DNA of 64,000 nucleotides from Trypanosoma brucei. Lineage: Eukaryota. The DNA is taken from NCBI GenBank assembly GCA_000002445.1, contig CP000066.1, forward strand, positions 352,001 to 416,000. The letters are read 5' to 3'. The position numbers and the translations under genes were made by a program. Below are positions 870 through 26,600 of this stretch, piece by piece. Under the pieces are notes generated by a model. The model worked only from the letters and a program-made list of their open reading frames with translations, did not search any database and had not been told where the DNA came from. Each line of letters begins with the position of its first letter. Positions within the stretch are counted from its first letter, which is position 1.

Positions 870-1367
870 ATGCCGCGTCCCTTTGGTGTGTGGGCTCCTG
901 CGACAACCCTCGCGGAGTACCGCGCCCGTATTCCTGGTATGAGCAATTTTAAGCTGCGATGGGTATTTGGTGCTCGGCGAGAGGTTTATTACCACCCGGA
1001 GGCACTTGCTCACTTTAAGGACCATCAACAATATAAAGACGCTGTGGATACCGTACGTGCAATGCGCACTTCCGACAAGTTCTTCGGTGAGGGCGTCAAG
1101 TTACCGCACCACCCCCTCATTAAGATGGGTGTTATATTGTCGATTCATGGTTATTTGACGTACTGCTGCCTGCGATATTACTATGGTACGCATGTTCCGG
1201 CCAATAATCCAACATGGAGAAAAATTGTGAACAAGGAGTGGGAGGAGGCAATTAACAACTCTCCATGGGATCATATGTCGCACGTGTGGCAATACAGTGA
1301 TCAATACGCGTCGTCCATTGGCGAGGCGGCAGCCCTGGGCAGACGTAAGTTCTATATTCCTGCCTAG
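870..1367 (+). CDS. hypothetical protein (165 aa), first ORF of the + strand gene block in this window
   Basis: Long ORF in the same orientation as the downstream polycistron. A poly-T/pyrimidine tract (200-300) lies upstream, as expected for trans-splicing. No recognisable domain. Confidence 0.4.
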   Translation: MPRPFGVWAPATTLAEYRARIPGMSNFKLRWVFGARREVYYHPEALAHFKDHQQYKDAVDTVRAMRTSDKFFGEGVKLPHHPLIKMGVILSIHGYLTYCCLRYYYGTHVPANNPTWRKIVNKEWEEAINNSPWDHMSHVWQYSDQYASSIGEAAALGRRKFYIPA

Positions 1368-1758
1368 TACAATATGCATGGATGTTAAATTATCTCCGTT
1401 GTCGTTCGTTCGTTTATTGGTTCCTTTGGGCTATTATTATTTTTCCTTCTTGTTTAGTAGCACTAGTAGGTAGGGTTATCGATTCGGTGAAGACGATGTA
1501 ATATTATGTTATTATAATCATTATTATTATTATTTGCGAGAATGGAGCCAAACATTAGTAAAAGAAAGTTGGAAATCAGGGGAAACATATGTGTGCATTT
1601 TCTTTTTGTATTGAAGGTCTTATGTTACACGCCAAAAACGTTCACAACTGCATTCCGTATATTTATGTTGTCTCACTTTTAATTTTTGTATTCTGTTTAT
1701 TTTTGCGATTTACATGCTTCTCCTTATCCCTCTGTATGTTTAGTGGGGGGAAAACAGA

Positions 1759-4700: not shown

Positions 4701-7700
4701 TACGTGGAGCAACGTCGGCCTCCCCAGTGCCTCCACTGCCCACAACAATCGGTTTGACAGGGGCCACTGGTTACGGTTGGAACGTGTGGAGGTACAATTA
4801 CCATGGAGGTTGTGGCACATGGGGCGTCATTGTGAGGCACGGTGGAGGGAGGTTCTTGGCCTCAAACCCACGGATATGTTGCCGGACATAACTCTTCGGC
4901 TACAATCAGGAGATTTTACACACGAATCAAACTTGGTGCTGCTGTCCGCGGGTGGTTTCGGTTTTTGTCTGCGTGAAGCTGTTTTCCTTCCACTAACCGA
5001 TAACTTTAACGTGGTTGTGTGCTTTCGTTACCACGGAAATACACTTGCCTCTGAGACGCCTGGTGGAAAGACAACCGCCGGGAGTGAAATTTGTAACACA
5101 GTCACTGTGGCTGAAGGTGAATTGTCTCTTTCTGCGCAAGACCGCGTAGATCTTCTCACTTACCGTCAGCAGCAATCGTGTCGCCGCATATTCATGAGGG
5201 TACATCCCCGGTCGATTTCGCCACATTTTAATATTCCTTTTGGTTTGCTTACCGCTGAGGTTACTTCTTCAGTTATTAAACGAAACGACGAGATCCGCTG
5301 GACTTGGCCTCAACCACATATCGCTGCGTCAGTGGAATTGCAACTTGGAAAAGTTTTTTCCTTGCGGCGCCACGATTCAAAGGACTGGCTTCCCGCTACT
5401 GCGAATGCGGCGTCTCCTCGATGGATCGTAAATGTTAGAGAAACGGGGTCCGCGTGCCCGGAACAAGAGGGAAGTAATAAGGAACGGGTAACGGGTATTT
5501 TGTTCGGTGCTTCACCCAGGGCGGCTGTTCTTCGTGGTGGATGCAGCACCCGCAGTAGTGCAGTGAGTAACTTCGGCGGGCTAAGTTCCCAACACACAGG
5601 AGACGCTGCAGAGAAATTGTACTTGCATTGGCCACCCGCACCGCCGGGCGCTGATCACAGACGACGCCCGCCACCTCCGACTATCGAGCTTTTGCTTTCT
5701 CGCATAGTGGATAATGACGCTGTGGACGTTGGTGGTGACTCGAAAGCCGCACCGAAAATTGAGAAGGAAAGTACCGTGAACGTGGGGGTCGTGACGCTCA
5801 ATTTGGCCAGGTGCTTTTCAGATTCCTCTGGGTCTAGCTTATATGAATTGCACCACCCGCAAACGCCACCGACGGTGGCGGAAGGAAGACCTCCAACGAT
5901 CGGTTACGTGGAGCTGCACTACCTTCATAACTTTGCACAAGATAACAACACAAACCGTGGTGGACAGGAAACGGACAAGGTTGAGCAGGAGCAGCATGAC
6001 AGATGCAGCAGACATTCACTTCTGTTGCTGACTGTGGTTGGAGCACGATACAGGGAACGTGGGCAAATTTCAGCAGCCCCGGTGAGGTCGCAGCGTGATG
6101 GAAAGGAGGGTGTGTCGGTGAAAACGATACTAACATCCTTCGTTGTCGGCGTAGGGCACATGTCATGGCATACCTCAAAGGAAGTGGGTATGACCCCTCA
6201 CTTTGGCAGTACGATGCTGTTTGAACGTCCATATAGTCATACCGGAGAGGACGCTGATGGTGAACGCAATGTTGTAACTGTTCGACTGCAGATGCTGGCA
6301 GAATCGTCAAGTAGGGCGAAGTTAGGCTCCCCCGATCGTGAAGTGGGTGGGAAACAAAAGACATGTTTGCGAGGGGAGCAGAAAGAGGCTGAGATGCTTC
6401 CCACATCATTTGCTCTCCTTCATCTCAACTGGGACACTGTCCCTGCCGCTGTAATGGAGAGAATGAGAGGCTGTTGGCTTCCTCTGTTCACAGCTGCAGC
6501 GCAAATTGATGGCTCATACCATCTTTCCGGAGAAGTGCTCGTCCAGTGGAGTTGGTTTGATCCCTCTTACGGATTTTGGCGGTATGCGCTTCCTCTCTCC
6601 GTCAATCAAATATCACCAATGGATTGTACAATGGCAAGTGTCCCACAAATGTTGGCTGCATCGGAGGACCACGTGGAGACACCTGCATCCTCATTCCCAT
6701 CCTACTTGTCAATTTATATTGATGAATTTACCTTTTCCCATAACGTTGTTGTTGAGACACCGCGGAAAGATACACGAGTATCGCTTATCGTAAGCGTTTG
6801 CGTGAATGGGGAAAGGGGACCGCTCAGCCCGCCGTCTCTTACTGCTTCATCTTGGACGCTTCGGTGCACGGAGGGAGAGGCAGATTCCCTAAAAGTTTGT
6901 TATGGAGACTGTACCGGCGCAACTCCCTTCGAGACCGAAGGGAAACGCAGCAGGTGGAGAGAAAGATGTATACTTCCCTTTTGTTTTCCTGGCGATGCAC
7001 AGCAACAGATATCTTTTCAACTGCGTCACGGCTGGAGTCCGTTCAGTACGGTTGGCGAGGGATGGTTAAGTTGGAAGGGCACGCCATCACAGGGGACTTA
7101 TGCTGTTCCTATCTTTGTAAGCGATGCAAGCTGCCGCAACAGCAGTGACGATTACCAACGGTGCGGCGTTTTGATGGTGTCCGTTGAGCAGGGGCCGCTT
7201 CATTTGAACTCAATGCAGGTAACTACCACTGTCCCACCTCCCTCATCCAATGAGGAAGTGCAATTCGATGATGGGAAAGGCCCTCAGCGTAAGGAAAAGC
7301 ACAGTGGAAAGCATGAGGACCATCACGCGACGGTGGATGGCAATCCTTCATTCATTGTATTGGTGGATCTACGTGTGGACTCAGTTGAGGTTGACGGGTG
7401 GAACGTCCTCCCTGATGATGGTAACTGCCTGGAGTTGGTGGTTTTGGGAGATGCTCTGTATAACAACGGTAAATCAAAACAAACAGTACGGTTGGAAACG
7501 GCATGTTCTCCTTTCGACGGTGGCGCAACCGGTTGGCAAGGTCTGATTTGCGTGCAGAATTCGTCCGAGCTCGAAGTGCACCTCTACCGAAGGACTCAAA
7601 CGGTGCCGGGTAACTCTGTGGAAAAGAGTGTGAGACATCGCATGATAAGTGGTCGGTTTGTGTTAAATCTTTTGCCGTCCGAGGATGGGGGTCTCTGCAG

Positions 7701-10700
7701 CAACTCCCTCTGCGTCGAGTTGCGGCAACGTCCCATGCGCCCCATGACTGCAGACGGCAGTGGCAGTTGGAACTACCCTGTGGGGCAAATGCACGTGACA
7801 TGCCGTCCGCTCTTGCACTCTGGTGTGCTGTACGACCCGCGTAATGTGTTTTTTCAGCGACATCTGGGAGTAGAGTTATTGAAGCTTAAGGGTGTGATTC
7901 ACATGCAAACTGAAGGTGAACGTGCCCGTGGTCGTAGAAATAGTAAAAGGGGGAGAGGACCGCTTTCATATGTTAGTTTGCACTGTGGTGCGGTGACAGT
8001 GAAGTCCCTACCCTTCACTCTTCCTTCTCATCGACACGGAACCTTCAAAGATGTTGAAAGTAATGATGGAATTGATTGTAGTGGTGCATCCACTCCTCAC
8101 TTCACTGAGCGACTCGTGTGTTCTCCGAACGGTGCTACCGAAGTACGCGTTTCGTTGTATCTGGAAAACGATGCGAAGGAACGGAATGACAATGCTGTTG
8201 AAGCGTCTCCCATTCACAACCCCTCGGAGACTGGAAATGCAGAGGATGATGAGGTTTACTATACCAATGTATGTCTGCCTGTTGGTGAAGGGGCTGTGAA
8301 AATTCGTGCACCCTCACGTGACGAAGATGGGTTCAAGAGCGGGGAGGTAATTCCAAAAGATATATGGGTACCGTTCAATAGCGCAGATCCCGGGAGAAAC
8401 ATTTCTGCACTGCTACGGTATAAGTGGTTCCAAAAAGTTACATTTGGTACATGGCTTTCGTGCATTGGCTGGCGCTGCACCTCCGCACCTTTACACCGGC
8501 CATCGCTAATCTTTAGACTCCGATTTCTGGGTGGTGAGTTGTGCAGTTTGCCACTTGATTTGTTTGATCGAGATTTGCCGGAGCAGGAACCGACGTCGCG
8601 ACACTGCACTGTGGCTGCTACGGCCGTCAATGTGGTGCCTTCGCTAAGTAGTCACTGGAGTTTCTCATACATTCAACTTCCAACCATCTGGCCCTTGGGT
8701 GGTCGAGTCGAGCGTGTGGAGCTGCACGACTGTGTTACCGATGGTTTCTCGCTGTTGTTGGGGGTCCATGAGTGGGACGCGGTGGACACCCAACTCCTCA
8801 CTGAGTTGGAGGGGCCTACGGTTAGCCATGATTCCCTCGAGGCAGTTGGAAAGTTTCCCTCGGCGTCCGGTGCCGGGCATTGGCTTTCATTTGGTGAACA
8901 TGCGCTCCTCTTCGCGCGAAGCCGCCGTCCGCCAGTGCCAACGCGGTCGAAACGTTTGTTCGTGCCCTTCTGTTGGTGGCCAGTGGTTGCGGAGTTTCAC
9001 CTCGGCAGTCTCGATTGTAGTGGCGGAACGGTGGAAGCGGGAAGGTTAGCCATAAGTTGTGAGGTCATCCTCGGGCGGTGGCACAAGAACGGGTGGGTGT
9101 GGGAGGAAAATTCACCGACTACACGAGAAGCCTATGCCTCGCAAGTAACTGTGGATGCTTGCGCCGCTGCAGTTCAGGCCACTTGGCGTTGTGATGCATT
9201 TGATGAAGAAACTTTCATTCGACAGTTTTCCGTCGATGAACTGCGACAGGGACGTGAGCGTTATGCCGTACGAACGAAGCTCGTTTGTAGTGTCGTGCCC
9301 ACATGTAGATTTTCCGGCTCCGAGACTCCTTCCAGTGACGAACAACGTGAGACGCCTACTACCACTTACGTGCTTGAAGCTGTGTCGGCTGTGGATGATC
9401 ATCTCGCCAACACCAGCGGCAGGGTATCCCTGAAGTTGGCTGAATGTGGGGCCCACGTGAACGAAGCGACTGCTGGTGCAAAAGTTGAGGGTTCTCTTAC
9501 TCTCGCATGGTCTCTAAAACATGATGAATTGGCGCTTGAAGGAACAAAGGGGGAATCGACGAAAGTCGGGAGGATCCTCCACCAACGTAGCGTCTCGGGT
9601 AAGTCAAATGGTAAAGATAGGGAGGAAAAGGAAACTTCGAAGGTCACGAAGGAGTTACTGCCTGAGTGGGAAGTGGTGTCTGTCGAAGTACGTAACCTAT
9701 CCGTTGTGCAGGATCCTTCACGACAAGCACCAGAGAAACGTGAAAGTTTCGATGTGCCGGTTGTGGTCCAGTTACTCGCATCTGAGCGGAGAAGGCATAA
9801 TAGAGATGGTGAAGGTGGAGCACAAAGCCCTGAGTCACGAAAGAAGAAATCGACGTCACCCCGCGTGTCAAGTGTCTTTGCTTTAGCATCTACTAACGCC
9901 ACACCAGCGCCAGGCGTGAGGCAGTCCTTGTTAAGAGCCAACATTACACCGAATTGGCGTCTAGAGGCACACGAGTGGTCGGACCATCGGAAGGTGTTAA
10001 TGATGTCACTCTGGCAGATGCTTCCAGGAAGTGATGCTTGTGCCTATGCGCTGGGATCGTTACGGCTTGACTCCGTAGTTCGTAGCGCTTACGAGCAATT
10101 TTCTTCAGGGACGCCGGTAGCTGAAGCAGCAAGGGGTTTAAAGGAAGGAACGTCCCTGGAGCAGGACCTGGTGGTAACAGATTGGCTTCCACTCAAACGG
10201 AGCGATTTGCTGCAGGAGTATTGGGGCCTTGCGAGGCTGCAGTTGCGGCCCAATGTAAAAGCGGCAACGGTGGCTGACGCATCTGAGAAAAATATGTCGC
10301 GTGTATACGAGCACCTCCCCATTTGCATCGAGCTGCTCAGCGCGAGCATAGATTCAGCTGAAGACGTGAGTAGGTATGTACAAGAAGGTCGGCTGGGACT
10401 TCTATTTGTCCCTGGATGCAGAGACAGAAAGGAAGGACGTCCTTTGTACAGTTCGACTCTTTTATGTAAAGCAGAAAGAGAGGTCAACGCGGAGCGTGAG
10501 ATAAAGGGGCATGGGGAAAAAACAGCCGAAGGTGAAAATCAGGATGGAAACTTTTCGTGCTCTCTTATGGCGACCACGTCAATCCACACTTTGTTGCTTA
10601 GTGGAGAAGTGCAGAGTGGTCAACCTGCATCAGTTGACGGCGATTGGCTAGGGCTTTTCGTTTTCTTAATTGATCGTGCACATGAGGGTGAGAGGATAAA

Positions 10701-12648
10701 AAATAAACACTCCTCCCAGCTAGTGGAAATTGTAGGAAAGGGGGACTGGGGTGATGTCCTAGCGGTGCAGCGTTTGCATGTTGGTCAAATTCCGAAGGAT
10801 CAGCCCCGTCTGTCTCTGTTTGGGGAAAGCAAAGAAAACGCACCGACATTCCTATCTGGTGAAGTTACTGCAACGTTTAATTGCGAATCATTTAGTGTAT
10901 CGCTTCGGCTGCATATTGTTATGCTTCCCCAAGCAACAGAAGCCGTTTCGACCGGTGTTGGATCTATGTCTGATGTGGGTGGAACATCTCCACAACCGTT
11001 GAGGGGAAACTCAGTTTTTCACTGCATTGCAGAAGGACACGGAGAGGAAAACAGCTTATTAGGCAACGACGGTGTACTTTGTATGGTAGAGGGCACTGTC
11101 TATAAGATAACAGAAGACAGGACAGTTTTCATGTGGAATGCGCGGGATGTGAGCCACGTCCGTCGACCATCCTCCTGTTCCTCTGGCAATGCCGTTGCAC
11201 TTGCCGCATCACGCGGACGCCCCAGGTGGGTACAAGTCAGTGAAAGCAAGGGGTCTCCGCAACGGCACTCCGGGAAACGGGGGTACGGTCGTTGCATGGG
11301 TCTGACGGTGTGGGCATACAAGTACGGTAACGACGCATGCTTCCTCATCGCGGAGTGCGCGTCACATCACGTTATTACTCTGTCTACGTTGCCGAGGCAT
11401 GCACCCGAACCACCACCAACGGTTCAGTTACCGCGTGTGAGGAACAGACGGTCCAGGAAGAGGCGAGTCATCAGCGAGGGATCCGTTATTGCTGCTCCCA
11501 CTCCCCCTTCCTGCGGATCGCAGCTGCACTGTTACAACCTTCAGCAGCGGCGCTGGAGTGTACTAAAGACAGAAGGAAGTAGCTCTGGAGTATCCGACAA
11601 CTGTGGCGCAGCGGCCACGCCCTCGACTAGGCGCATTTTTCATTCCACCGTTGAAGTTGAGGGGAAGGTGTGGCTTTTTGGGGGTTGTAAGCTTCGTGGA
11701 GAAGTTTGTGGCGCGTCTCTGGATAGGGTTGGCATGCGTGTGGCGAATAGGGTGCTGATTGCATCCGAAGCGGCATTGTCAAATGAACTTATGTACCTAG
11801 ATCCCAGTATGCGAGTGTGGCAAAGCGTGCAACCCGTTCCATCATGGCATGATTTACCGTCTGCCGGTACCGGTCCCTTTCACGGAGTTGCAAGGGTATC
11901 GCTCGGTTTGTTGCCACCCCCTCCTGTAGCGTGCCATGCAGCCGTACACTGGATGGGACACATGTTTGTGTTCGGCGGGCTGTGTGAGTCATCTTCCATT
12001 AGTGGTAGCCTAGAACCCACTGCAGAACTCTACATGTTTCACGCAACCCACATAACTTGGTGGTCACTATCTCCAAACAAAAGTGCCGATCTTAGCGGGA
12101 GGTTTTTTGAGTGTAAGGGGAATGGCGGGTGGCCTGCTGCGCGATATGGTCACGCTGCTGCCGTCGTACCGGGCCATCCCCATGGGGCGTTTCTCATCTT
12201 GGGGGGAGCTATGAAAGTTGGAATTGAGTGCTCTTCACAACGCACTAATGCCTTAGTTGATTCAGGCCGTTGCGCCCACAGTGAACTTCTTTGGGTGTAT
12301 TACCCAGCCCTCGGTTTCTGGCAAAACATTAGTGTTCCGCTGGGCGTCCCACTGACGCGGCGGGCCTTCGCATCATTGCAAGTGGCGCAACTCTCAAGTG
12401 CCTCATGCTCCTTGTATGCCGTTGTTCTTGACGGAGGGTGTGACGCGGCCCATGTTGAAACTTGGCTGCAGCGGCGGCGTTCTGAAAAGGATGAGCAAAA
12501 TTTATTGAAGAAGAATCTAAACGGGTTACTTGGCGTTGTTTCTGCCTTCGTAAGCGCTCCATCATTAGGCACCGCGTGGATAACATTGGGGGAGGAGTGC
12601 AAGCAGCACATCCCCATGACACCCGCGGTAGACGCATTATGCGAGTAG
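1759..12648 (+). CDS. giant hypothetical protein (about 3629 aa) with a kelch/galactose-oxidase-like beta-propeller at the C-terminus. The true start Met may lie downstream of 1759.
   Basis: A 10.9 kb stop-free ORF. The C-terminal ~450 aa carry repeated kelch-like blades (GKVWLFGG, GHMFVFGG, GAFLILGG, LYAVVLDGG). The opposite-strand ORFs here are short and read as noise. Confidence 0.75.
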   Translation: MLGGAFVSAHNARFQKRDGNNVISFPLKETSAEVHHRMEAPGGQLTIARLEIRRFCLQPEELVQRCAQPSAGSVGGSVQLYVSFTTPRGVEISLQGVAANQQTDEKGVRRVQCAANTNLMDVSFVVTQLKTDGIQKDGCESVKSVMCQVWYSRAEQQEQVMKGGGGEAKLPVNNLVDGDWSSFEDSPPSSITALPHVEDEEKLEEKAPAAVESHWEVLADVSLEIMKYGVQTVNFAMGDVAKEYTSASLQASIFIEPKLLAVEIEEAAAPLATKPPVETTQPGLPPDNNPLSLDHGTAPSTGFAEERCGEATSAPSGRSTAVGTGEAPVCGAGVVEVPKGNMEAATQEQADTMVVVLAEQPKHMGARWLLLLDMSRWDDCEPNGSDELKQEKVNVATQGAGDATSRSVVEGGILFRLVLCGADANVLAYGSPFSGSLCRTSGWSDALLAVGDDIVACSVVSVKLQMFNHNAMPNCQTDAEATAEPLQLNNTSREAAKAWVTVASSQLVPIASLLASLKESSMLPIPLTAVDLPSAVAPPTEFVSVNRGQTISAQASLVRVPAVVGETKSVRHWMKTIRIATDCFFRKSCQTLDTVAPPSEISLPKECEWKQSGTGWMCSVELNVSAVVLQKVVPYVDAGAAWPVTALSVSGGCEILLEETKMSDIFFSAYTDNEWSETRRSPVSHFDTVVQATVNETHPVVLITLHSSVSQEVLFGHAVFAPLGLRQDVGHVWLPLQYKNHIGYHKHGEDDSSPTVGWVHCSYICVFSSAGASSSSVTAGNEEVLQQPVLFPSPLSVPKYIASPCLTPALRWNSIEVCIVKASDLRIDVNSSSRCSDGKGGNDGGAGGNVEGFLHASVQLLPKSDLNPFVTPAASYEYPHWNSTCRVGIAAAATHLIVQVLVGDGRGGEGKSVGIVDITRVATSGFWTTASCDGVWLPLVSNHSSGGERRYCGSLFIRWSFGCVGDLPKEVVIGMGAALRPTWSNVGLPSASTAHNNRFDRGHWLRLERVEVQLPWRLWHMGRHCEARWREVLGLKPTDMLPDITLRLQSGDFTHESNLVLLSAGGFGFCLREAVFLPLTDNFNVVVCFRYHGNTLASETPGGKTTAGSEICNTVTVAEGELSLSAQDRVDLLTYRQQQSCRRIFMRVHPRSISPHFNIPFGLLTAEVTSSVIKRNDEIRWTWPQPHIAASVELQLGKVFSLRRHDSKDWLPATANAASPRWIVNVRETGSACPEQEGSNKERVTGILFGASPRAAVLRGGCSTRSSAVSNFGGLSSQHTGDAAEKLYLHWPPAPPGADHRRRPPPPTIELLLSRIVDNDAVDVGGDSKAAPKIEKESTVNVGVVTLNLARCFSDSSGSSLYELHHPQTPPTVAEGRPPTIGYVELHYLHNFAQDNNTNRGGQETDKVEQEQHDRCSRHSLLLLTVVGARYRERGQISAAPVRSQRDGKEGVSVKTILTSFVVGVGHMSWHTSKEVGMTPHFGSTMLFERPYSHTGEDADGERNVVTVRLQMLAESSSRAKLGSPDREVGGKQKTCLRGEQKEAEMLPTSFALLHLNWDTVPAAVMERMRGCWLPLFTAAAQIDGSYHLSGEVLVQWSWFDPSYGFWRYALPLSVNQISPMDCTMASVPQMLAASEDHVETPASSFPSYLSIYIDEFTFSHNVVVETPRKDTRVSLIVSVCVNGERGPLSPPSLTASSWTLRCTEGEADSLKVCYGDCTGATPFETEGKRSRWRERCILPFCFPGDAQQQISFQLRHGWSPFSTVGEGWLSWKGTPSQGTYAVPIFVSDASCRNSSDDYQRCGVLMVSVEQGPLHLNSMQVTTTVPPPSSNEEVQFDDGKGPQRKEKHSGKHEDHHATVDGNPSFIVLVDLRVDSVEVDGWNVLPDDGNCLELVVLGDALYNNGKSKQTVRLETACSPFDGGATGWQGLICVQNSSELEVHLYRRTQTVPGNSVEKSVRHRMISGRFVLNLLPSEDGGLCSNSLCVELRQRPMRPMTADGSGSWNYPVGQMHVTCRPLLHSGVLYDPRNVFFQRHLGVELLKLKGVIHMQTEGERARGRRNSKRGRGPLSYVSLHCGAVTVKSLPFTLPSHRHGTFKDVESNDGIDCSGASTPHFTERLVCSPNGATEVRVSLYLENDAKERNDNAVEASPIHNPSETGNAEDDEVYYTNVCLPVGEGAVKIRAPSRDEDGFKSGEVIPKDIWVPFNSADPGRNISALLRYKWFQKVTFGTWLSCIGWRCTSAPLHRPSLIFRLRFLGGELCSLPLDLFDRDLPEQEPTSRHCTVAATAVNVVPSLSSHWSFSYIQLPTIWPLGGRVERVELHDCVTDGFSLLLGVHEWDAVDTQLLTELEGPTVSHDSLEAVGKFPSASGAGHWLSFGEHALLFARSRRPPVPTRSKRLFVPFCWWPVVAEFHLGSLDCSGGTVEAGRLAISCEVILGRWHKNGWVWEENSPTTREAYASQVTVDACAAAVQATWRCDAFDEETFIRQFSVDELRQGRERYAVRTKLVCSVVPTCRFSGSETPSSDEQRETPTTTYVLEAVSAVDDHLANTSGRVSLKLAECGAHVNEATAGAKVEGSLTLAWSLKHDELALEGTKGESTKVGRILHQRSVSGKSNGKDREEKETSKVTKELLPEWEVVSVEVRNLSVVQDPSRQAPEKRESFDVPVVVQLLASERRRHNRDGEGGAQSPESRKKKSTSPRVSSVFALASTNATPAPGVRQSLLRANITPNWRLEAHEWSDHRKVLMMSLWQMLPGSDACAYALGSLRLDSVVRSAYEQFSSGTPVAEAARGLKEGTSLEQDLVVTDWLPLKRSDLLQEYWGLARLQLRPNVKAATVADASEKNMSRVYEHLPICIELLSASIDSAEDVSRYVQEGRLGLLFVPGCRDRKEGRPLYSSTLLCKAEREVNAEREIKGHGEKTAEGENQDGNFSCSLMATTSIHTLLLSGEVQSGQPASVDGDWLGLFVFLIDRAHEGERIKNKHSSQLVEIVGKGDWGDVLAVQRLHVGQIPKDQPRLSLFGESKENAPTFLSGEVTATFNCESFSVSLRLHIVMLPQATEAVSTGVGSMSDVGGTSPQPLRGNSVFHCIAEGHGEENSLLGNDGVLCMVEGTVYKITEDRTVFMWNARDVSHVRRPSSCSSGNAVALAASRGRPRWVQVSESKGSPQRHSGKRGYGRCMGLTVWAYKYGNDACFLIAECASHHVITLSTLPRHAPEPPPTVQLPRVRNRRSRKRRVISEGSVIAAPTPPSCGSQLHCYNLQQRRWSVLKTEGSSSGVSDNCGAAATPSTRRIFHSTVEVEGKVWLFGGCKLRGEVCGASLDRVGMRVANRVLIASEAALSNELMYLDPSMRVWQSVQPVPSWHDLPSAGTGPFHGVARVSLGLLPPPPVACHAAVHWMGHMFVFGGLCESSSISGSLEPTAELYMFHATHITWWSLSPNKSADLSGRFFECKGNGGWPAARYGHAAAVVPGHPHGAFLILGGAMKVGIECSSQRTNALVDSGRCAHSELLWVYYPALGFWQNISVPLGVPLTRRAFASLQVAQLSSASCSLYAVVLDGGCDAAHVETWLQRRRSEKDEQNLLKKNLNGLLGVVSAFVSAPSLGTAWITLGEECKQHIPMTPAVDALCE

Positions 12649-12846: not shown

Positions 12847-13343
12847 ATTCCAGGGTATGGCTTTCGTGCGTCTTTTTCCAGTAGTTTGCTCCGCCAGGAA
12901 AAGGAAGCAGGGCGCAACTTCTTGGTGTAAGTTGTTACAAATTATACAATTTTTGAGGGACGTATGTATTATGTTTCGTGTTCAAGGAATCGTGATGGCT
13001 TTTCACTCAGTGCAAACTATATTTGTTCTCTCTCCTTCTTCTGTTTTTTTCTTTGAGGGGTGAGGTGGTGTGTGCGTGTGTGGAGTTATTAGTTGGTTAT
13101 AGCGAGTTAATTTTGCCACAAGAAGAAGGGCTAGCGCTGATTCTCGACCTACCGATACCCGACGCCGGTAACCTTCCGTAACTGCACGGAAGAGTGGAGG
13201 CGAGAAGAAAGGGAGGCATAGTTTTCACTTTTGTGAGTGTGTTGGACAACACAGCGCCAGTGAGTGAGTTGAAGGCAGGCCTTTCATCCTTCCTTCTCAT
13301 TTGTTTGCCCTGCGCAGGCGCAAGGGACGCCGCGCATTTATCG

Positions 13344-13345
<2 letters not shown>

Positions 13346-13377
<32 letters not shown>
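13346..13377. repeat. (TA)n microsatellite immediately upstream of the DnaJ start codon
   Basis: Read directly in the sequence. Confidence 0.95.
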
Positions 13378-14573: not shown

Positions 14574-15078
14574 AGGGAGTGAAGTTGGGGAAAGAGAAGA
14601 GCAATATAAGTGAGGACTTACAAAATTGCACTTGCACCAATGCACGTTTGCGCCCACTTGTACGCACTCGCTACAGTATATGTTATGTGTGTGTATGCGT
14701 TTGTGTGTCAGGGGGGAAGGTCATTACCGTGACATGAAAAGTATTGAAATGTGTAGGTAGCTTTACCTTCACATGCACTCACATTGCAATAACTGCTGGT
14801 ATTCTCCGTTTGCCTTTCCCATCTGTATGTTGGTGCTTCTTCTTATTGGCGTTTCCGTTTGTTAATTTACTTGCATTAGATGTGTTGCCACCTTCCGCGC
14901 AAAAATTTGCGGAGTATATAGGAAGGTAGCGGTTGTGGCACCAGACAATCCACACGATTTTTCCTGGTTTTGTCGGCTATAATAGAGGGCAATTTCAAAT
15001 ACTAAAATCAGATCCACAGAACTAAGTTCCAAAAGAAGGAGGGGACGGAGACGGGAATTTCGTTTCTACAAAAATTCG

Positions 15079-15099
15079 TATATATATATATATATATAT
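15079..15099. repeat. (TA)n microsatellite abutting the AAA ATPase start codon
   Basis: Read directly in the sequence. Confidence 0.95.
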
Positions 15100-17542
15100 G
15101 GGTCGCCACCATGATGTGTCAACGGCAACTGTTAGTGCATCCTCTAAAGGTCCTCTCTTCTCGCTTACGGGAAGGGGTGGTGAAGTTAAACGGGCCCGTG
15201 AGTTGATTGCCTCCATTGGGGGCACTGTTACTTCAAATGATAACAAGGCGGATTACCTCGTTGCTGTAAAGGGCGCAGGGCGGCGTAAGGTGGAGGATTT
15301 TTGCAACGCAAGGCAAAATAATTCTCCCACTGACAGTGGAAACAAGGTGGTCCTTCTGGACATGTTGGAAGAGTGGAGCAGTAATGGTTCTCTGCCTAAG
15401 CGACGTGTAAGAATGGAAGACGCGGAGTTAACGAATTTGTTCAGCGCAGCCGCGAACGAACGTGCACGGCGCTCGTATGAAGTTCCTCCTAGTTTTCTGA
15501 AACGGTCCCGCGTAACACTCGATGCGGAGGGAAGCGTGGTGGATGAGTCAGACAACGCTGTGCTCCTTAAATGCGGCCCAACCCGGTCTCAGTTAGGGAA
15601 GATGACGCCGTCACCCTCCTCAGCTGCTACAGTGGAAACTGTACGTTGCAACGACCGAACGTCTCCTGTGAAGAATGGAAAGGCAGCTGGGACTACGCGC
15701 TTCCGACCACTACTTCTTGATGACGAGAGTCCTGACGATCAACCGAGCCGGCATCAAAAGATGGCTACTGAAATGAGTGGAAAGGTGAATCCGATGCGAT
15801 TAGCTTTCCGGCAGCGCCCTAAGCCCGACTGGGACACATATTTTTCGGATCCTTCTGTAGATTGCGGCGTATTAACCACTGAGGGAAGCACCACATCAAC
15901 AACGTTTCACCACCCAGCTTGCTCGTCAAAAAGTATTGGGTCGCAGCCCAAGGTGAAGCATACCCGTAACGAAGCTATATCTGATGGAAATATCGCAAAA
16001 CAGAAAAAAAATGGTGTCCTGTTACTGTTTGACACTAACAAGGTAAATTCCAACGGTCGGTCTTCTGTGCCTCCCAAAAGCGGCCAACGGCAAAGGGGGA
16101 CTGCAAGTATTCACAGTTGTAGTGTTGGTACAAAAACCGCTTCGGTATTGAGTAGGAGTGCAGGGAGTGCCAAAATACCTCCGCGACAGTTGTCGACAGT
16201 ACAGCAAAAAAAGAAAGAAGAGCAAAGCATCAGCCACGCAAGCAGAAACGCACCGGAGGGGGATCGAGGGCCACGCATCGAGTGCCCGACTGGCACATCT
16301 GCATCACTCTGCCGAGTCGTGCCAACAGTCCGCAGAGCCAACGAAGACAGTGCGAGCAGCAAGAAGGCGGCAACCAGTGGGGCGTCTCGAATGCCACCAT
16401 CACTTCCCCCTCGTCTCCAGGCCGCCTCAAAATCCTCTCGGACTGACGGAGTCGTCACAACTACGGACGGAGCGGTACCCCCGTCTACCCGGCAGTCCTG
16501 GAACTCACGGCCATCGTCGGCACCCGCAGCGCCCGCCAAACAAACTGGTGTTGCTGCCCGACGTTCAACGTGTTCGGATCCATTGCTAAAGCGCGTCCGC
16601 CAGAGCATATACTGCGAGGGCATTTCCGAGGAGGCCTGTGCAGCGGTGCTTCAGCAGGTTGTGGACCGCGCGTGCCCCGTCAACTTTGACAGCATCGCTG
16701 GCTTAGACACGTGCAAGCGTATTCTGCAAGAAACCATTATTCTTCCGGCGAAATGTCCACAACTGTTCACAGGTCTGCGCCGGCCTTGCAGTGGGTTGCT
16801 GCTTTTCGGGCCACCAGGAAACGGTAAGACATTATTGGCGAAAGCAGTGGCCAACGAGTGCAACACAACCTTTTTTAGCATCTCCGCAGCGGCGATTACT
16901 AGTAAATGGGTGGGTGAAAGTGAAAAGATGGTACGGGCGCTGTTTTCGGTTGCGCGCGCTCTTGCACCTAGCACAATATTTATTGATGAGGTCGATTCGT
17001 TGTTGCAAGCCCGTGGGGCTGCGCAAGAGGGTGAGGGGTCGCGTCGAATGAAAACGGAGTTTCTCGTGCAGATGGATGGAGCTGGGAACGACACGCAGAT
17101 GGCACGCGTATTGGTTATGGGGGCCACAAACCGACCATTTGACCTAGATGAAGCGGTAATTCGCCGGTTCCCGAAGCGAGTGTTCGTCCCACTCCCCGAT
17201 GCCCCCGCGCGGGCACAAATTCTACAAAAACTACTTAACACGGTGGAAACTCCAAATACTTTGAGCTCAGAGGCGTGGGAGAGGGTCGTCAAACTTACTA
17301 GTGGCTACAGTGGGCACGATTTGAGGCAACTCTGCGAAGACGCAGCGATGATTCCTGTGCGGGAGCTTGTGGCAGAGAAGCTACGAAAGGGGGAGAACTT
17401 GGCGGAGCACGCACACAACGCACTGTTGAGGCCGTTAACGCTCACTGATGTTGAAGCCTGTGTTAGTGGAATGAACCCCAGTTGTTGCCCGAAGCTATTA
17501 AATGCGTTGGAGGAGTGGAGCAAAACTTTCGGAAGTAAGTAG
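15098..17542 (+). CDS. AAA+ ATPase of the meiotic clade (fidgetin-like/spastin/katanin-p60 family) with an N-terminal BRCT-like domain and a long Ser/Pro-rich linker
   Basis: Walker A LLFGPPGNGKTLLAKAVA, Walker B IFIDEVDSL, ATNRPFDLDEA and the second region of homology are all present. The AAA core aligns closely with FIGNL1 as I recall it. N-terminal residues ~20-95 (LFSLTGRGG...ELIASIGGTV...DYLVAV...VVLLDMLEEW) fit a BRCT pattern. Confidence 0.85.
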   Translation: MGRHHDVSTATVSASSKGPLFSLTGRGGEVKRARELIASIGGTVTSNDNKADYLVAVKGAGRRKVEDFCNARQNNSPTDSGNKVVLLDMLEEWSSNGSLPKRRVRMEDAELTNLFSAAANERARRSYEVPPSFLKRSRVTLDAEGSVVDESDNAVLLKCGPTRSQLGKMTPSPSSAATVETVRCNDRTSPVKNGKAAGTTRFRPLLLDDESPDDQPSRHQKMATEMSGKVNPMRLAFRQRPKPDWDTYFSDPSVDCGVLTTEGSTTSTTFHHPACSSKSIGSQPKVKHTRNEAISDGNIAKQKKNGVLLLFDTNKVNSNGRSSVPPKSGQRQRGTASIHSCSVGTKTASVLSRSAGSAKIPPRQLSTVQQKKKEEQSISHASRNAPEGDRGPRIECPTGTSASLCRVVPTVRRANEDSASSKKAATSGASRMPPSLPPRLQAASKSSRTDGVVTTTDGAVPPSTRQSWNSRPSSAPAAPAKQTGVAARRSTCSDPLLKRVRQSIYCEGISEEACAAVLQQVVDRACPVNFDSIAGLDTCKRILQETIILPAKCPQLFTGLRRPCSGLLLFGPPGNGKTLLAKAVANECNTTFFSISAAAITSKWVGESEKMVRALFSVARALAPSTIFIDEVDSLLQARGAAQEGEGSRRMKTEFLVQMDGAGNDTQMARVLVMGATNRPFDLDEAVIRRFPKRVFVPLPDAPARAQILQKLLNTVETPNTLSSEAWERVVKLTSGYSGHDLRQLCEDAAMIPVRELVAEKLRKGENLAEHAHNALLRPLTLTDVEACVSGMNPSCCPKLLNALEEWSKTFGSK

Positions 17543-20818: not shown

Positions 20819-21349
20819 TTGCCGCACATAATATGCCGGAAAAAATCCATGTTGAGTTACCACCGGATGGTCTTCTTTGCATATTTTCTCTCTTTAATTT
20901 TTGAGTCTTCTCCTTCTCCTCCTCCAATCACAAGCCTTCGTCTTTTTGAAAGTGCATCTCAGTGTGTAGGCAAAATGAGTTATATAATTGGCCATGTAAT
21001 GAAAAAGACGGTTTTTGTGCTAGTGTTTGCGATTGTTGCGGCATCCAAAAGTGATGAAGATGATAATGATGATGATTTTCGAGTACCCACATGTGAGCAA
21101 TTACTCCCACGGTGGCGGGACGATTTGATGTGCTGTGCTGAGAAGGTACGGGATAAAAACACTTGGTGTTGTGTCAACAACGTGTCAAAAAGCATGTGGA
21201 CTGCTTTAGAGGAATGTGCCAAACAATCCCCGCGTGATTTTACCACATACCCGTGTAGTTGTCTGTCGCAACAAATGATAGAAGCAAATGGTTGGACTGA
21301 AGAAAAGGAAAGAAGCATTAAGAATGCGGAGGAACGGGAATCGCAATAA
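20819..21349 (+). CDS. small Cys-rich acidic secreted protein. The likely true start is at 20975 (MSYIIG) or 20999 (MKKTVFVLVFAIVAAS signal peptide), giving a mature protein of about 100 aa with a poly-Asp/Glu tract.
   Basis: Conserved ORF in both inverted-repeat arms (46622-47161 on -). Signal-peptide-like hydrophobic stretch, 10 Cys, a DEDDNDDD tract. An upstream (GA)n(TA)n microsatellite follows the usual intergenic pattern. Confidence 0.45.
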   Translation: MPHIICRKKSMLSYHRMVFFAYFLSLIFESSPSPPPITSLRLFESASQCVGKMSYIIGHVMKKTVFVLVFAIVAASKSDEDDNDDDFRVPTCEQLLPRWRDDLMCCAEKVRDKNTWCCVNNVSKSMWTALEECAKQSPRDFTTYPCSCLSQQMIEANGWTEEKERSIKNAEERESQ

Positions 21350-22531
21350 AACATCAAGTGAGCTGGCAGCTGAAGAGGAAATTGTGGATTGAAAAGCGGA
21401 ACAAGCAATAAAGGAAGTTAGCTCGGCAACCTAGTTAGGCACACGTTTGGGAGTAAGACCAACCTCATGAAAAGAATAATCCTTACAGTAAGCAAATGAG
21501 AAGATGAAACAGATACATCAGTATCAAAAAAGGAGAGTCTGTCCCCCCCTCCCTTTACATTTGGTGACACCACTTCTCTTTATTGCTTTTACTTCATTAC
21601 TTATTTTATTTTAAGGTTTATCCATTGTGGGTTGTTTCTAGTTGCTATTTCACGATTTGTTTCATGCCAAACATGTACATGTCCCTTCGATAAGAAACAA
21701 GGTTTTCGAGTTGCAATGTTCATGTTGTTGCATGTGTATAAAGTTGGGCACTATTCCCTTTTATCCGCATCCGCAACTTCATCACTGTTTTGTGCAAGGA
21801 GGGGAGGGGAGGTATTTTAGCAAATTCTTTTCAGAATAATGTGAAACATAATTGGGAAACGCAATAAAACAAGGTAATGATGGGACGATGTGATGTGATG
21901 TTTTTGTTGTTGTTTTTGTTATTCTCGATTGTAGTTGATACCGCTAATTTTTTTTAACTTTTCAATACGGGGATGCATACATTTGATCGCTTTGCCTCCT
22001 TGATGTTGTGTACCTCTTATGAAATTATGTGTAGCATATCCTCCATGGGCTTTAATTCTTTTGATAGTAGTTGGTTGTCCCCCATTTGTAAAGTGTTGTC
22101 CACAAGATTTCTCCACAATAGATTTTGATCTGCTTGAAAACACGTTTTTTTTTATATTATGGTACAATAATATGTCACTCTTACAAACGTCACCTACAAA
22201 CGCATTACCATTATTAGTTGTTGAATATGTTTGCCCATTAGGCGAAGTGCTGGAGGTGCAAATGATAGTGAATAAACGGATTGAATTTTTGCACATTTAT
22301 GCTGAAGTAGATTATATTATGCGTAAATGAGTGTGTTTGGTTATTGGTGATTCCCCTTGTGAGGGGAATGGAAAAATTACGCTTAAGTTACATGCGGTGC
22401 TGGTGGAAACTTTAGTTTCCGTAATAAAGGCCACCATCGGTAACTTGGCTTACTTTCTTCTTTGTATTATGAAATTGGTGTGTCTGTGCTTTTACTTTTG
22501 ATTTTTCGAAAAAGGACAAAAGAAATAAAGG

Positions 22532-23629
22532 ATGCGGATATATTTCTCATTTATTGTCGTATTGTTGACTGGGACAGTGGAAAGTTCAAAAGCAGGAAAG
22601 AAGGGTTCACAAATATTGAATGAAAACGAGTTTAAAACATTATGTGGATTTGTCAATCTGACGTTTGAAATACAGAAATTGGCGAGTGAAGGAAAGCCAA
22701 CACTTGGAGGATTGAAACCTGAAAGTGTTAACGAGTCCGTGAATACCATTTTGTACGGCAACAAAGGCAGCACCGAAATTGGTTTCGAAGGCGAAAACGA
22801 CAGGAAAGATTACTGCGGGGACAGGCAAAATCGAGCCCACAAATATGCGGGGAAAAGCTTAATAAAGGATATTTTGTGTCTATGTAAACCCCACAGAAGG
22901 CAGGGCCAAAACGGGGCTGGTGCAGAAGATCTGTGTTTTAGCGGTAACAAGTGGTACAAGGGCGGTGAGGTGTGGAGCAATAAAGAGCAAGCTAAGCAGC
23001 ATTGGGAGAAAATAAGGTTGCATTGTAACCAACTTCCGAAACGGGAGCAACATATACAAAATCAATTATACCACTTAAAGGAAAAAGTTCAAGCAGTACT
23101 GAGAACAGCGACAGAAAAGAAGGGAAGGGAATCAGATCAAAACATACGACTCGGGGGTCATCAGGCAACAGAAGTGAAGCAATGCTCAGCAACCACTGGA
23201 AAGGGTAATTCGGTGTGTTTGATGTATAACATCACTTCCGGCACACTCACCAACCATAGCATCCCCTGGTTAAAGCATCTTGAAGAACTTGCCGAGAAAA
23301 TACCGAATGATACACGAACCAATTTGGGCACGAGTGAAAACGACGTCGAAACCGTTCCAAATGGAGTTGGAGATGCCGCACCTTCAACGGACCGAAAGAT
23401 TAACGAAGGCATTCGCACTAATGATGATAATAACAATAATAATGATAATGATAATATTAATTACAAGCACAATGATGGTAATAACACTGAATATAATCTA
23501 GAAGATCCACTAATGAATGAAAGCGGAACTAATACATCCGCAGAACCACAAACACGACCACTTTGGTCAGTAAATGGGAACCCTAACCCTAACCCTTTAA
23601 AAATACTTCTTTTACTGCTCTTAAATTAA
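22532..23629 (+). CDS. surface protein A: 365-aa putative GPI-anchored, N-glycosylated secreted glycoprotein (N-terminal signal peptide, C-terminal LKILLLLLLN hydrophobic tail), left-arm copy
   Basis: Signal peptide MRIYFSFIVVLLTGTVES. About 8 NxS/T sequons. Conserved Cys including a DILCLCKP motif. Asn/Asp-rich low-complexity region (NDDNNNNNDNDN). Short hydrophobic C-terminus typical of a GPI addition signal. Distantly related to gene B (shared NxxEFKTLCG and LCLC motifs). Confidence 0.7.
   Translation: MRIYFSFIVVLLTGTVESSKAGKKGSQILNENEFKTLCGFVNLTFEIQKLASEGKPTLGGLKPESVNESVNTILYGNKGSTEIGFEGENDRKDYCGDRQNRAHKYAGKSLIKDILCLCKPHRRQGQNGAGAEDLCFSGNKWYKGGEVWSNKEQAKQHWEKIRLHCNQLPKREQHIQNQLYHLKEKVQAVLRTATEKKGRESDQNIRLGGHQATEVKQCSATTGKGNSVCLMYNITSGTLTNHSIPWLKHLEELAEKIPNDTRTNLGTSENDVETVPNGVGDAAPSTDRKINEGIRTNDDNNNNNDNDNINYKHNDGNNTEYNLEDPLMNESGTNTSAEPQTRPLWSVNGNPNPNPLKILLLLLLN
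23583..23599. repeat. short telomere-like repeat (CCCTAA)x2.5 inside the 3' end of gene A (mirror copy TTAGGG x2.5 at 44378-44394)
   Basis: aaccctaaccctaaccc read directly. It encodes the NPNPNP just before the GPI signal. Confidence 0.6.
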
Positions 23630-26600
23630 AAATATATGCATATAAATATTAAAACTATTATATTTATGATGAGATACATGGGTTTTTTTAATACCGTCGG
23701 AAAAATTAATCAAATGTTTCTGTTTCAATATGTGCTTCCCTTTGGATGGCATAAAATATAATGGGGGGTGTGCAAGGTGTAATGTAAACATTTTTAGTTT
23801 TCGCTGTGGTGGCAGATGCTTACATATATTAAAATGATTTTATCGTTTCAGTGCCTAAGCCGTTTCTGCTTTGATGTCGGTGAGTGCCGAGCGAATTCGC
23901 GGATGATGTGCTGTACGAGTGGGGGATTACGTAAATAATTGATTTTTCGACTTATGTAAAGAAACGTATTTCGACATGCTTAAGATATTTTAAGTTAGGG
24001 AAATGTATACCCTTAAATGCATGCGGAGAGCGGCGGCAGGTGCTGTCGTCCACATTTTCCACAACGCTGAATACGACAGTACAGGCGAAAAAATTGCGAC
24101 AACATTCGTGAAGTGGGGGACTTGTATGTAAAGGTCCGAGAATTAAAAAAGTGTGGGTAAGCTTATGCAGATTAGGTCCCGAGTCCCCGTGACTCCTTTT
24201 CTATCAAATCTAGTGCATGCTGCGAGGACACCTTTTTGAGGTACTCCGACGCTGCGTTTTTAACGTCATTAATATCATTTGGGAATTTGAGCAATGAGGT
24301 AAGCGGTTGAGTTAGTGGGTAAGAATATTGCTTACTGGTAAGTGTGTTCTTAGGTTCAACTTACCAAATCAGGTAGATGTTGCCGATGTGTATGCCGGAG
24401 GGAGGTGGAAATGCAAGAGAGGGAGCCACTTCATTATTACATTTTTCGCGGATATGCAAGACGGTCACCTGCAAAGAATTTTGCTACGCGACTGAAAACA
24501 GAGAAAACAGAGTGTGTATAGGCTGAAGTATCAAAAAGGGGAGGCAAGTTCCCAGGGGGTGTTCTAGTATAAATGGCCCGAAAATTGAGAAAAAAAAGAT
24601 CGGGTACTGATTATCCAGTTAATGGCCTAAGACTGCTTGTGGTTGAGGTGTCTGTGTTTTCCCTAATTCATTCTCCTCTGGAGATGCAAATAAATTCATG
24701 TTTGGTGGTGTACTATATGACCGAAAGTTGTGTTCTTTGAGAATAATAAGGCGGTTGTATGCGGCTTCGTTTATGAGGAGCCGTAACGATTTGGGGCGAC
24801 TCTCCGCGATGGAGCGATGAGGGAGTTCACCGCCACCCGAGGGGGTTTTGGTCGATTTTGGAGATTTTGTAACATTGGGGCAGGGGCGAGAGAGTACTGA
24901 GGATATGTTAAGTATCCTTTCTCATAATTTGACTTAAAAGCGAAGTCTTACGTGGGGAGGAACGAGAGGTTACGTTGAACTTGTGCGTGCTTCCAGTTAG
25001 TATTCTGCTGGCTGTGTGGATGCACAACTTGAACCTGACTTACTTTTACCATATGCGGGAGACGGCGTATTCATGTCGACGAAATGTGGTGGTATCTGGG
25101 TATTGATCATATTGCCCGTTTGGCGCATCTACGATAACAATAGTGATGAGAGAGGTGTGCTGATTGCGTACGATGGTGCAACGTTATTTCAGGGGCAGTA
25201 TCGAAGTTGTATAATTTCATGTGCAGGCGAGTAGGATTGCTGGGAAGGAGAGTTTGTGTATGGTGCGTGTGCGAGAGTAAGGGCTATACGGCACCATAGC
25301 GAACTAAAGTGACTGAACTTATTTTCTCATTTGGTGCAAGGTCGCAGCGCAAACCAGCCACGAGTGGCACTCCCATAATAGGCGGCTCGTCGATACGTCA
25401 TGTGTATACTTCCAGAAAAAGTGCTCGTGCGGAGTAAGCAAAAACGTCATGTATATGGTTAGTGTTCACACGTTGGGAGCACAGTGTTTTATACCGAGAA
25501 GATATGGGTAATATTGCATATACAGTGGGTTTTTTTTAGCAAAGTAAGGAGTAACTTAGCAAACGGGTTGTGTGAAATGGCGTCTTTTTTCGGTGATGCC
25601 ACAATCGTCTGTGATGGCGAGGGAGGGAGGGTTGACATCAACGTAACCAATGTGAGTGTCTTCTGGACTGATGTGAGGAGCAGTGGAGTTCTGCTATTTG
25701 GAAGGATAACGAATGACAGGTATATTAACGTTCACAGAGGTAGACTAGATGCCAGGCTGCTTCTATTTCTCGTTCCTTCCTCGTGGTGACCGCGCCGCCG
25801 TTCTGCCCACAAATATGCATTACGTGTAAGTGGTGGTAAAGAAAGGGGGGATTGTTTACCTATCCCTCATGAAAGGACGTGTTAAAGGCGAAATGGCTTC
25901 TCAAAAGTGCAGAGAATGTTTTCTAGGTGGAGCACCGTCTTTCTGAGAACCGCGAGCAAGGGCTCACCCAGTTTGGTCAAGTGTTGTCTGCTTCATTTTC
26001 TATGCTTTGGTGTACCTCGCCTTTACAGTTTGAGGTGAAAGGGGAACATAATTAACTTAACCGCCCCCGCTCATTTGCACTCTGACTTCCGCAGTATGTG
26101 TTGTTTCTGCGTGGGCGTAGAGGAGCTGTTAGGCGAGTGGTGCCTTCACATTACGGAGGGATGAAATAACGAATGACAGACTGCAGTTTGTTTTTAACGT
26201 AACATGCATCTTTCTTTAGGTAGCGGACGTTGAACCCGCAGAAAGTGTGTTATTGTGACGTTAGAGGAAGAGGCAAGTCAAAAGATAAGCGGATACTAAC
26301 TAAACACTTTCGAGGCCGCCTGCATGGATAAATGGATAAATCAAGAGAAACAACAGATAAAACACGAGAATTACCTTTTATCGCGCGTCGCTCCTGCAGT
26401 AGGACGACCTTCTTCAGAATTCCTGGGCACAACTGCTGTCAGTACGTCCAGCAGGCTAGCTCGGGAAGAAAACTTAACCATAGTCTTCAACATACGCGCA
26501 TAAGTTCCTTTTGATTAAACAACCGGGTGGGATGGTTTTCCATCGTTTCCAGTCTACCAAGGGCAAATAGAAAAGCGGCAGCACCGCATTCATAACGCGA

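Follow-up and report, generated by a model that had tools for sequence, protein, structure and literature searches.

Spastin and related proteins

Spastin belongs to the few enzymes that sever microtubules in Trypanosoma brucei, a parasite whose shape and division rely on a permanent microtubule corset. The original classification of the T. brucei spastin, including work on Leishmania, is reportedly that of Casanova et al. 2009. In bloodstream forms, the stage that causes disease, spastin is needed to complete abscission (Benz et al. 2012, PMC3261199), and in procyclic cells it acts in spindle dynamics (PMC12287269). The latter study, published in Communications Biology in 2025, describes T. 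brucei spastin (TbSPA) as a protein of 814 amino acid residues with a coding sequence of 2442 nt and the Walker A residues G576/K577. The protein is nuclear and bound to spindle microtubules through its MBD, and GST-TbSPA(295-814) severs microtubules in vitro, which the G576A/K577A mutant does not (PMC12287269). Here we analysed a stretch of 64,000 nucleotides of T. brucei (assembly GCA_000002445.1, contig CP000066.1, positions 352,001 to 416,000, forward strand), referred to below as the window. The open reading frame (ORF) at window positions 15098-17542 on the + strand is very probably TbSPA, the T. brucei orthologue of spastin, that is, a severing ATPase with a single divergent BRCT domain at its N-terminus.

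The canonical spastins (human SPAST and the Drosophila protein; PDB 5Z6Q, 6P07 and 3B9P) have an AAA module 49-54% identical to that of TbSPA, and TbSPA shares with them the intact pore loops, the Arg fingers and the C-terminal helix, as well as the severing of microtubules, which is published for TbSPA (PMC12287269). The difference lies at the other end of the protein: canonical spastins begin with a three-helix MIT domain (PF04212 in several of the matches), while TbSPA has a BRCT there and a MIT domain is undetectable; its disordered linker is also much longer than theirs. The unusual N-terminal BRCT was already reported in the 2025 paper, where it was modelled on TopBP1 (3AL2) and the AAA part on spastin (5Z6Q) (PMC12287269). 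Both structures are also among the present structure matches. A full-text literature search for a BRCT in Trypanosoma spastin gave this single 2025 study (PMC12287269), the preprint of which dates from January 2025, so that the BRCT-spastin architecture, our central observation, is already known. The published and the present sequence are the same. The small additions made here are that no MIT is detectable at residues ~295-457, that a BRCT-bearing orthologue from beyond the genus makes the fusion older than Trypanosoma, and that T24-G25 of the BRCT is invariant and K64 mostly basic. With the architecture and the first deletion tests published, the remaining value is narrow and concerns the ligand of the BRCT and the life stage in which it is relevant. 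The presence of a lineage-specific BRCT instead of the usual MIT adaptor suggests that the targeting or regulation of severing is not that of the human enzyme. Such a difference would help in understanding how kinetoplastids carry out mitosis and cytokinesis, and it might also serve selective inhibition.

Identity and start of the gene

The ORF runs from an ATG at 15098 to a stop codon at 17540-17542 and comprises 814 codons plus the stop. Its length and the G576/K577 numbering agree exactly with the published TbSPA (PMC12287269). Moreover, all six primers listed for T. brucei SPA in Table S1 of Benz et al. 2012 (for RNA interference, N-terminal tagging and the 5' untranslated region; PMC3261199) map with zero mismatches to the ORF or to its 5' flank; PR120 and PR121 are located at 14751 and 15048 in the flank, and the tagging primer begins at codon 2. 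The two FID primers have no map position in the window, although one of them has a site with 2 mismatches within the conserved KTEFLV motif, and the fidgetin of T. brucei is a separate gene, Tb927.5.1870. On the strength of this mapping, exact for SPA and failing for FID, the gene is assigned as T. brucei spastin. The coordinates and the meiotic-clade AAA core given in an earlier note on this DNA, made from the letters alone, hold, and its fidgetin-like (FIGNL1) label has to be given up. A T. b. gambiense protein annotated as 'AAA ATPase, putative' is 99% identical to the ORF product, with 7 substitutions, and full-length orthologues were found in T. congolense, T. theileri, T. melophagium, T. 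grayi, T. cruzi, T. rangeli and T. conorhini.

If translation began further downstream, as the earlier note had considered, the BRCT would lie outside the real protein. No point in support of this reading was found and its probability is negligible: the conserved block opens at P19 in nine Trypanosoma species, and the conservation extends to a kinetoplastid-like metagenome contig (L001, see below); the ORF listing gives no upstream in-frame alternative start; and endogenous N-terminal PTP tagging at the ATG at 15098, as published, yields a detectable and correctly localised protein. The first in-frame Met after the start is M89, which lies within the BRCT.

The 5' flank used for the published endogenous tagging, as read from the sequence and from the positions of PR120 and PR121, covers 14751-15097 on the + strand. 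It contains a pyrimidine-rich tract at ~14800-14870, which is a candidate trans-splice signal, and an (AT)10 microsatellite at 15080-15099, the final AT of which makes up the first two nucleotides of the ATG. A comparable TA run is found at ~13340-13370, upstream of the neighbouring DnaJ gene, and reads IYIYIYIYIF in a mechanical ORF starting at 13194.

The AAA module is closest to spastin

The spastin-type AAA ATPase module occupies residues 496-814 (window 16583-17539, + strand) and consists of N-terminal helices, the nucleotide-binding domain, the helical lid and the C-terminal helix, as delimited by conservation and by the PDB and database matches. Pfam assigns AAA to residues 567-699 (E 3e-39) and AAA_lid_3 to residues 727-758; in the first 500 residues it has no match, not even at E<=10. 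The Walker A motif GPPGNGKT (residues 571-578, window 16808-16831, + strand), which includes the G576/K577 pair mutated in the published inactive enzyme, the pore loop 1 KWVGE (residues 603-607, window 16904-16918, + strand) and the Walker B motif IFIDEVD (residues 627-633, window 16976-16996, + strand) with D630 and E631 are invariant across the nine Trypanosoma orthologues, and so are N678 of sensor 1 and R689/R690, the Arg fingers. The whole module is 77-81% identical to that of the other Trypanosoma species.

Among single-AAA structures in the PDB, the best matches are the spastins of Drosophila and human, both for the full protein (296 and 286 bits) and for a query with the module's N-terminal third (145 and 140 bits). 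For the C-terminal third the scores are 57.8 bits for spastin, 53.7 for FIGNL1 and 46.5 for katanin, and the PDB alignments extend to the C-terminus of the spastin chains. In addition, the named database matches to the module are spastins with 49-58% identity, and none has a FIGNL1-like length. From these comparisons the module appears nearer to spastin than to katanin, FIGNL1/fidgetin or VPS4. What weakens the separation of spastin from FIGNL1 is that it rests on the ranking of best hits together with the literature.

FRBD/FxxA defines FIGNL1, and the meiotic clade unites FIGNL1 and fidgetin (PDB 3D8B, 8R64 and 4L15) with TbSPA. The earlier note had taken the protein for a FIGNL1-like ATPase that remodels RAD51 filaments and is recruited by its BRCT to sites of DNA damage, with relevance to antigenic variation by homologous recombination. 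The common clade, the distance of only ~4 bits between FIGNL1 and Drosophila spastin on the C-terminal third, the nuclear location of TbSPA and the frequency of BRCT domains in DNA-damage proteins are in its favour. However, spastins outrank FIGNL1 in every query, the SPA and not the FID primers match, fidgetin has its own gene in T. brucei, and no FxxA RAD51-binding motif is conserved. Furthermore, the known activity is severing in vitro and the phenotypes are in the spindle and in cytokinesis (PMC12287269, PMC3261199). We regard this function as highly improbable, and the link to antigenic variation as an unsupported speculation tied to the organism and not to TbSPA. Two candidate FIGNL1 features were rejected. 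The tetrapeptide F115-S-A-A, which is the sole FxxA of the N-terminus apart from any in the BRCT, is not conserved, its Phe being Leu in five of the nine species, and the Trp of the pore loop KWVGE is no FIGNL1 signature, as an identical KWVGESEK is present in a MIT-bearing protist spastin (P0060). As to names, a number of fish proteins of ~460-520 residues (P0070, P0080, P0086, P0103, P0111 and others) are called 'spastin' in NCBI and 'Fidgetin-like protein 1' in UniRef within the same clusters, a conflict that could mislead a family assignment based on names.

A divergent BRCT domain at the N-terminus

The protein starts with an extension of 18 residues (window 15098-15151, + strand) that is not conserved: its identity to other Trypanosoma species is 0-33%, it is absent in most, and its predicted local distance difference test score (pLDDT) is below 60. 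It is followed by a single BRCT at residues 19-98 (window 15152-15391, + strand), for which AlphaFold2, run on residues 1-160 with an 8-species alignment, predicted the order β1-α1-β2-β3-α2-β4-α3 of the BRCT fold with a pLDDT of ~85-94. The elements are β1 20-24, α1 28-40, β2 43-44, β3 53-56, α2 62-75, β4 84-86 and α3 87-96, with the variable loop at residues 76-82 between α2 and β4. The BRCT keeps its high confidence in the full-length model, which is otherwise poor (mean pLDDT 39, AAA module below 50, shallow alignment) and was used for the BRCT and the secondary structure of the linker only. The domain is single; in the model no second BRCT is formed by residues 99-159.

Across Trypanosoma the BRCT is 50-56% identical and the block behind it (residues 99-159) 52-64%, but the linker at residues 160-495 only 16-28%, which indicates that the N-terminus is under constraint and the linker is not.

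The sequence-level evidence is more indirect. It counts against a BRCT that the Pfam BRCT models give no match to the T. brucei sequence at E<=10. The best profile match of the N-terminal domain is the BRCT of RFC1 (E 0.33, or E 0.007 with a BRCT-only profile of Trypanosoma and L001). Divergence is the reason why Pfam misses the domain, and its visible cause is an altered motif in α3: the canonical W-x-x-x-C reads M89-L-E-E-W93 in trypanosomes, that is, the conserved Trp at the start of α3 is an invariant Met in Trypanosoma and a Trp follows four residues later, while L001 has the canonical W-L-Q-A-C. A profile search with the N-terminal 160 residues against 1.84 billion representatives returned two Trypanosoma clusters and two spurious bacterial repeat proteins, from which absence in Leishmania cannot be inferred, since the real BRCT of L001 was missed as well; two metagenome scans with N-terminal patterns gave zero confirmed loci.

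An orthologue outside the genus Trypanosoma

The closest relative of the AAA module outside Trypanosoma is P0036, which is 57% identical and lies on the ENA metagenome contig L001 (ERZ21831265 ctg67904l, 600-4711), which is kinetoplastid-like and shares the DnaJ-spastin synteny. Just as in the window of T. brucei, a DnaJ gene stands immediately upstream of spastin (47% identity, E 1e-67). Upstream of the AAA part, a neighbouring frame of L001 encodes FCITGRGKEVSMAKELIEQFGGTI...NFLVAVKGAGRKRV...VVVVTLNWLQAC. This domain is 42% identical to residues 21-98 of TbSPA over 78 residues (E 4e-16), and in isolation it reaches 29.3 bits with Pfam BRCT_2, above the gathering cut-off of 27.3, and E 7e-4 with BRCT. 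The N-terminal domain of TbSPA is, by its predicted fold, a genuine BRCT, its family link at the level of sequence being transitive via L001. The earlier note had read a BRCT-like pattern into residues ~20-95, and both the predicted fold and the orthologue bear this out; in the scan by Pfam the direct T. brucei match failed and that of the orthologue succeeded. Its remark that the architecture is not the textbook one of the family is equally sound.

On L001 both DnaJ and spastin are split over two frames, and the BRCT ORF lacks an in-frame ATG behind the stop that precedes it; the split gene models most likely reflect indel errors in the assembly. Because the orthologue on L001 retains the BRCT, the fusion is older than the genus Trypanosoma, which the present analysis adds to the published description. 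The genes downstream of spastin on L001 (a cyclin, a DM10-domain protein and a PPR protein) differ from those of T. brucei.

A second contig, L002 (ENA ERZ27280294 k141_1286197, 1-2074), carries a spastin-like AAA ORF, P0037, with 58% identity to the AAA module of TbSPA. No BRCT was found on it. Further upstream the same frame codes for a FYVE-like zinc finger as well as for a long section rich in Lys/Ala/Glu, and one stop codon, 9 nt before the called start, parts these from P0037. Either these are two tightly packed genes or they form one gene with a read-through or reassigned stop.

The linker, without a detectable MIT domain

Behind the BRCT lies the conserved block of residues 99-159 (window 15392-15574, + strand), with a helix at 109-123 and a pLDDT of 47-72, which contains the sequence RRSYEVPxxFLKRSRV...VDESDNAVLL at residues 125-157 (window 15470-15568). 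The FLKRSR in it could be a nuclear localisation signal. The linker proper, residues 160-495 (window 15575-16582, + strand), was delimited by its composition, its islands and its low identity, and it spans the regions named MIT and MBD in the published description (PMC12287269). It contains 34% Ser, Pro and Thr and 16% hydrophobic residues and has almost no predicted secondary structure, in agreement with the long disordered Ser/Pro/Thr-rich linker described in the earlier note. A few conserved islands stand out from it: LLLDDESP at residues 203-212 (window 15704-15733), NPMRLAFRQRPKPDWDTYF at 231-249 (window 15788-15844), a ITKQKKNGVELTFD-like stretch at 299-311 (window 15992-16030) and PPSLPPR at 428-439 (window 16379-16414). 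Judged from their conservation, these islands outside the folded domains may be linear motifs.

The canonical spastins among the database matches carry an N-terminal MIT. In the published description residues ~295-457 of TbSPA are labelled as MIT, and this region is required for severing in vitro (PMC12287269). Pfam detected no MIT in T. brucei TbSPA (E<=10) or in seven orthologue linkers, the comparison of a spastin MIT profile with the trypanosome linker profile by hhalign gave a probability of 0.04%, and no helices were predicted in residues 250-494 in the low-confidence AlphaFold2 model. Residues 295-457 (window 15980-16468) are the least conserved part of TbSPA. Since neither Pfam nor profile-profile comparison nor predicted secondary structure supports it, the MIT label on this region looks doubtful; the published need for the region in severing stands. 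It may be that in the lineage of TbSPA the BRCT has taken over from MIT as spastin's adaptor at the N-terminus.

Possible ligands and role of the BRCT

The phosphate-binding residues of BRCT domains are known from BRCA1 (S1655/G1656/K1702) and from KKT4 (T494/S495/K543) (PMC8443799). At the corresponding positions TbSPA has T24, G25 and K64, which make up a putative phosphate pocket. T24-G25, at the end of β1, is the same in every taxon, L001 and T. congolense included, and K64, in the first turn of α2, is Lys or Arg in eight of the nine taxa. In the HMMER alignment they stand opposite the TG and the Lys of the RFC1 BRCT.

Two described BRCT proteins are the most instructive for comparison. 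KKT4 is a kinetoplastid microtubule-binding protein whose BRCT binds a phosphopeptide via the equivalent T/S and K residues, contacts KKT4's own microtubule-binding domain and does not bind DNA tightly (PMC8443799). In KKT4 (PDB 7QRO/6ZPK) the BRCT is C-terminal and of the tandem type and there is no ATPase, whereas TbSPA combines a single N-terminal BRCT with an ATPase; moreover, phosphopeptide binding is demonstrated for the BRCT of KKT4 and only predicted for that of TbSPA. RFC1 (p140; PDB 2EBU and 2K6G) provides the best profile match, from β1 through α2, and the BRCT is single in both proteins, but RFC1, unlike TbSPA, is a clamp-loader subunit. The RFC1 BRCT binds 5'-phosphorylated DNA ends, and TbSPA is not known to bind DNA. 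An analogous arrangement was met in plants, where FHA-AAA proteins of Arachis (P0011-P0014, ~1150-1200 residues) have an FHA domain (PF00498) and an AAA module with 53% identity to TbSPA across 28% of the query. Here, too, a phospho-reader is fused to a related AAA, although the reader domain and the lineage differ.

From its pocket residues and the precedent of KKT4, the BRCT of TbSPA would most likely be an accessory module for phospho-dependent docking or autoregulation. Several points weigh against this view. Deletion of the BRCT left unchanged both the localisation and the toxicity of overexpression, a dominant-negative growth effect in procyclic cells (PMC12287269). T. congolense lacks the basic cluster (GADQGM in place of GAGRRK) and has Met at the position of K64. 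The geometry of the pocket was derived from the alignment and the position in the secondary structure, and a lone BRCT rules out the tandem mode of pSer-x-x-Phe recognition.

The same deletion result also speaks for a structural or vestigial domain without a ligand, kept for folding, stability or oligomerisation, and the loss of the basic pocket residues in T. congolense and the replacement of the canonical Trp by Met89 point in the same direction. Nevertheless, the BRCT is conserved at 50-56% in Trypanosoma and at 42% in the distant syntenic L001, beside a linker of 16-28%, T24 and G25 are invariant in all taxa, and the published tests were made by overexpression and in one life stage only. 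A ligand-free domain is thus considered rather unlikely. Even less probable, in our view, is a nucleic-acid binder of the RFC1/PARP1 type, which would read 5'-phosphorylated DNA ends or chromatin and tether spastin to chromosomes instead of binding a phosphoprotein. The alignment of T-G and Lys with RFC1 as the best profile match (E 0.007), the single BRCT as in RFC1, the PARP1 BRCTs among the fold matches and the nuclear, punctate pattern of TbSPA (PMC3261199) would fit such a role. Yet the RFC1 profile match is weak, the kinetoplastid precedent, the KKT4 BRCT, shows no tight binding to DNA, and the nuclear and spindle localisation is unchanged upon deletion of the BRCT.

For the preferred reading, a phospho-dependent or autoregulatory module, the following mechanism can be proposed. 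By analogy with the solved spastin hexamers, the AAA module would form a ring and, driven by ATP, pull the C-terminal tails of tubulin through its central pore, by which microtubules would be broken. TbSPA binds spindle microtubules and tunes spindle dynamics in procyclic cells (PMC12287269), and bloodstream cells need it for abscission (PMC3261199). The single divergent BRCT stands in place of the canonical N-terminal MIT adaptor; it could bind a phosphorylated partner, or contact the microtubule-binding region intramolecularly as the KKT4 BRCT does, and would modulate the time and place of severing while being dispensable for basal spindle targeting. A more far-reaching scenario, which we put forward as tentative and rather doubtful, is that an MIT reading ESCRT-III was exchanged for the BRCT in kinetoplastids before Trypanosoma arose, and that the BRCT is functional in reading phosphate, either on a protein or on 5'-phosphorylated DNA, and would thereby link severing to signalling by kinases, be it at kinetochores or the spindle, in bloodstream abscission or after DNA damage. 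Such a role would escape the published overexpression assays in procyclic cells.

Surroundings of the gene in the window

Upstream of the DnaJ gene there is a giant ORF of 3629 residues (window 1759-12648, + strand). Scans of the window for tRNA genes and Rfam families found nothing. Between 20000 and 46000 an internal cluster of the surface-protein type lies beside housekeeping genes; it includes four ORFs of ~365 residues with VSG_B, two of which (36094-37194 and 42163-43263) are 90% identical to each other, and a leucine-rich-repeat protein of 816 residues (29470-31920). A perfect (100%) inverted duplication of ~2.8 kb, made up of two abutting repeat pairs, is located at 21052-23839 and 44133-46919, and each arm carries an identical ORF of 365 residues with Pfam VSG_B (22532-23629 on the + strand and 44343-45440 on the - strand). 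It may be a genuine palindromic duplication or else an artefact of the assembly. Between the arms lie ~20 kb with the convergent strand-switch region, and the GC skew changes its sign near 32 kb, where the genes of the + strand and those of the - strand meet.

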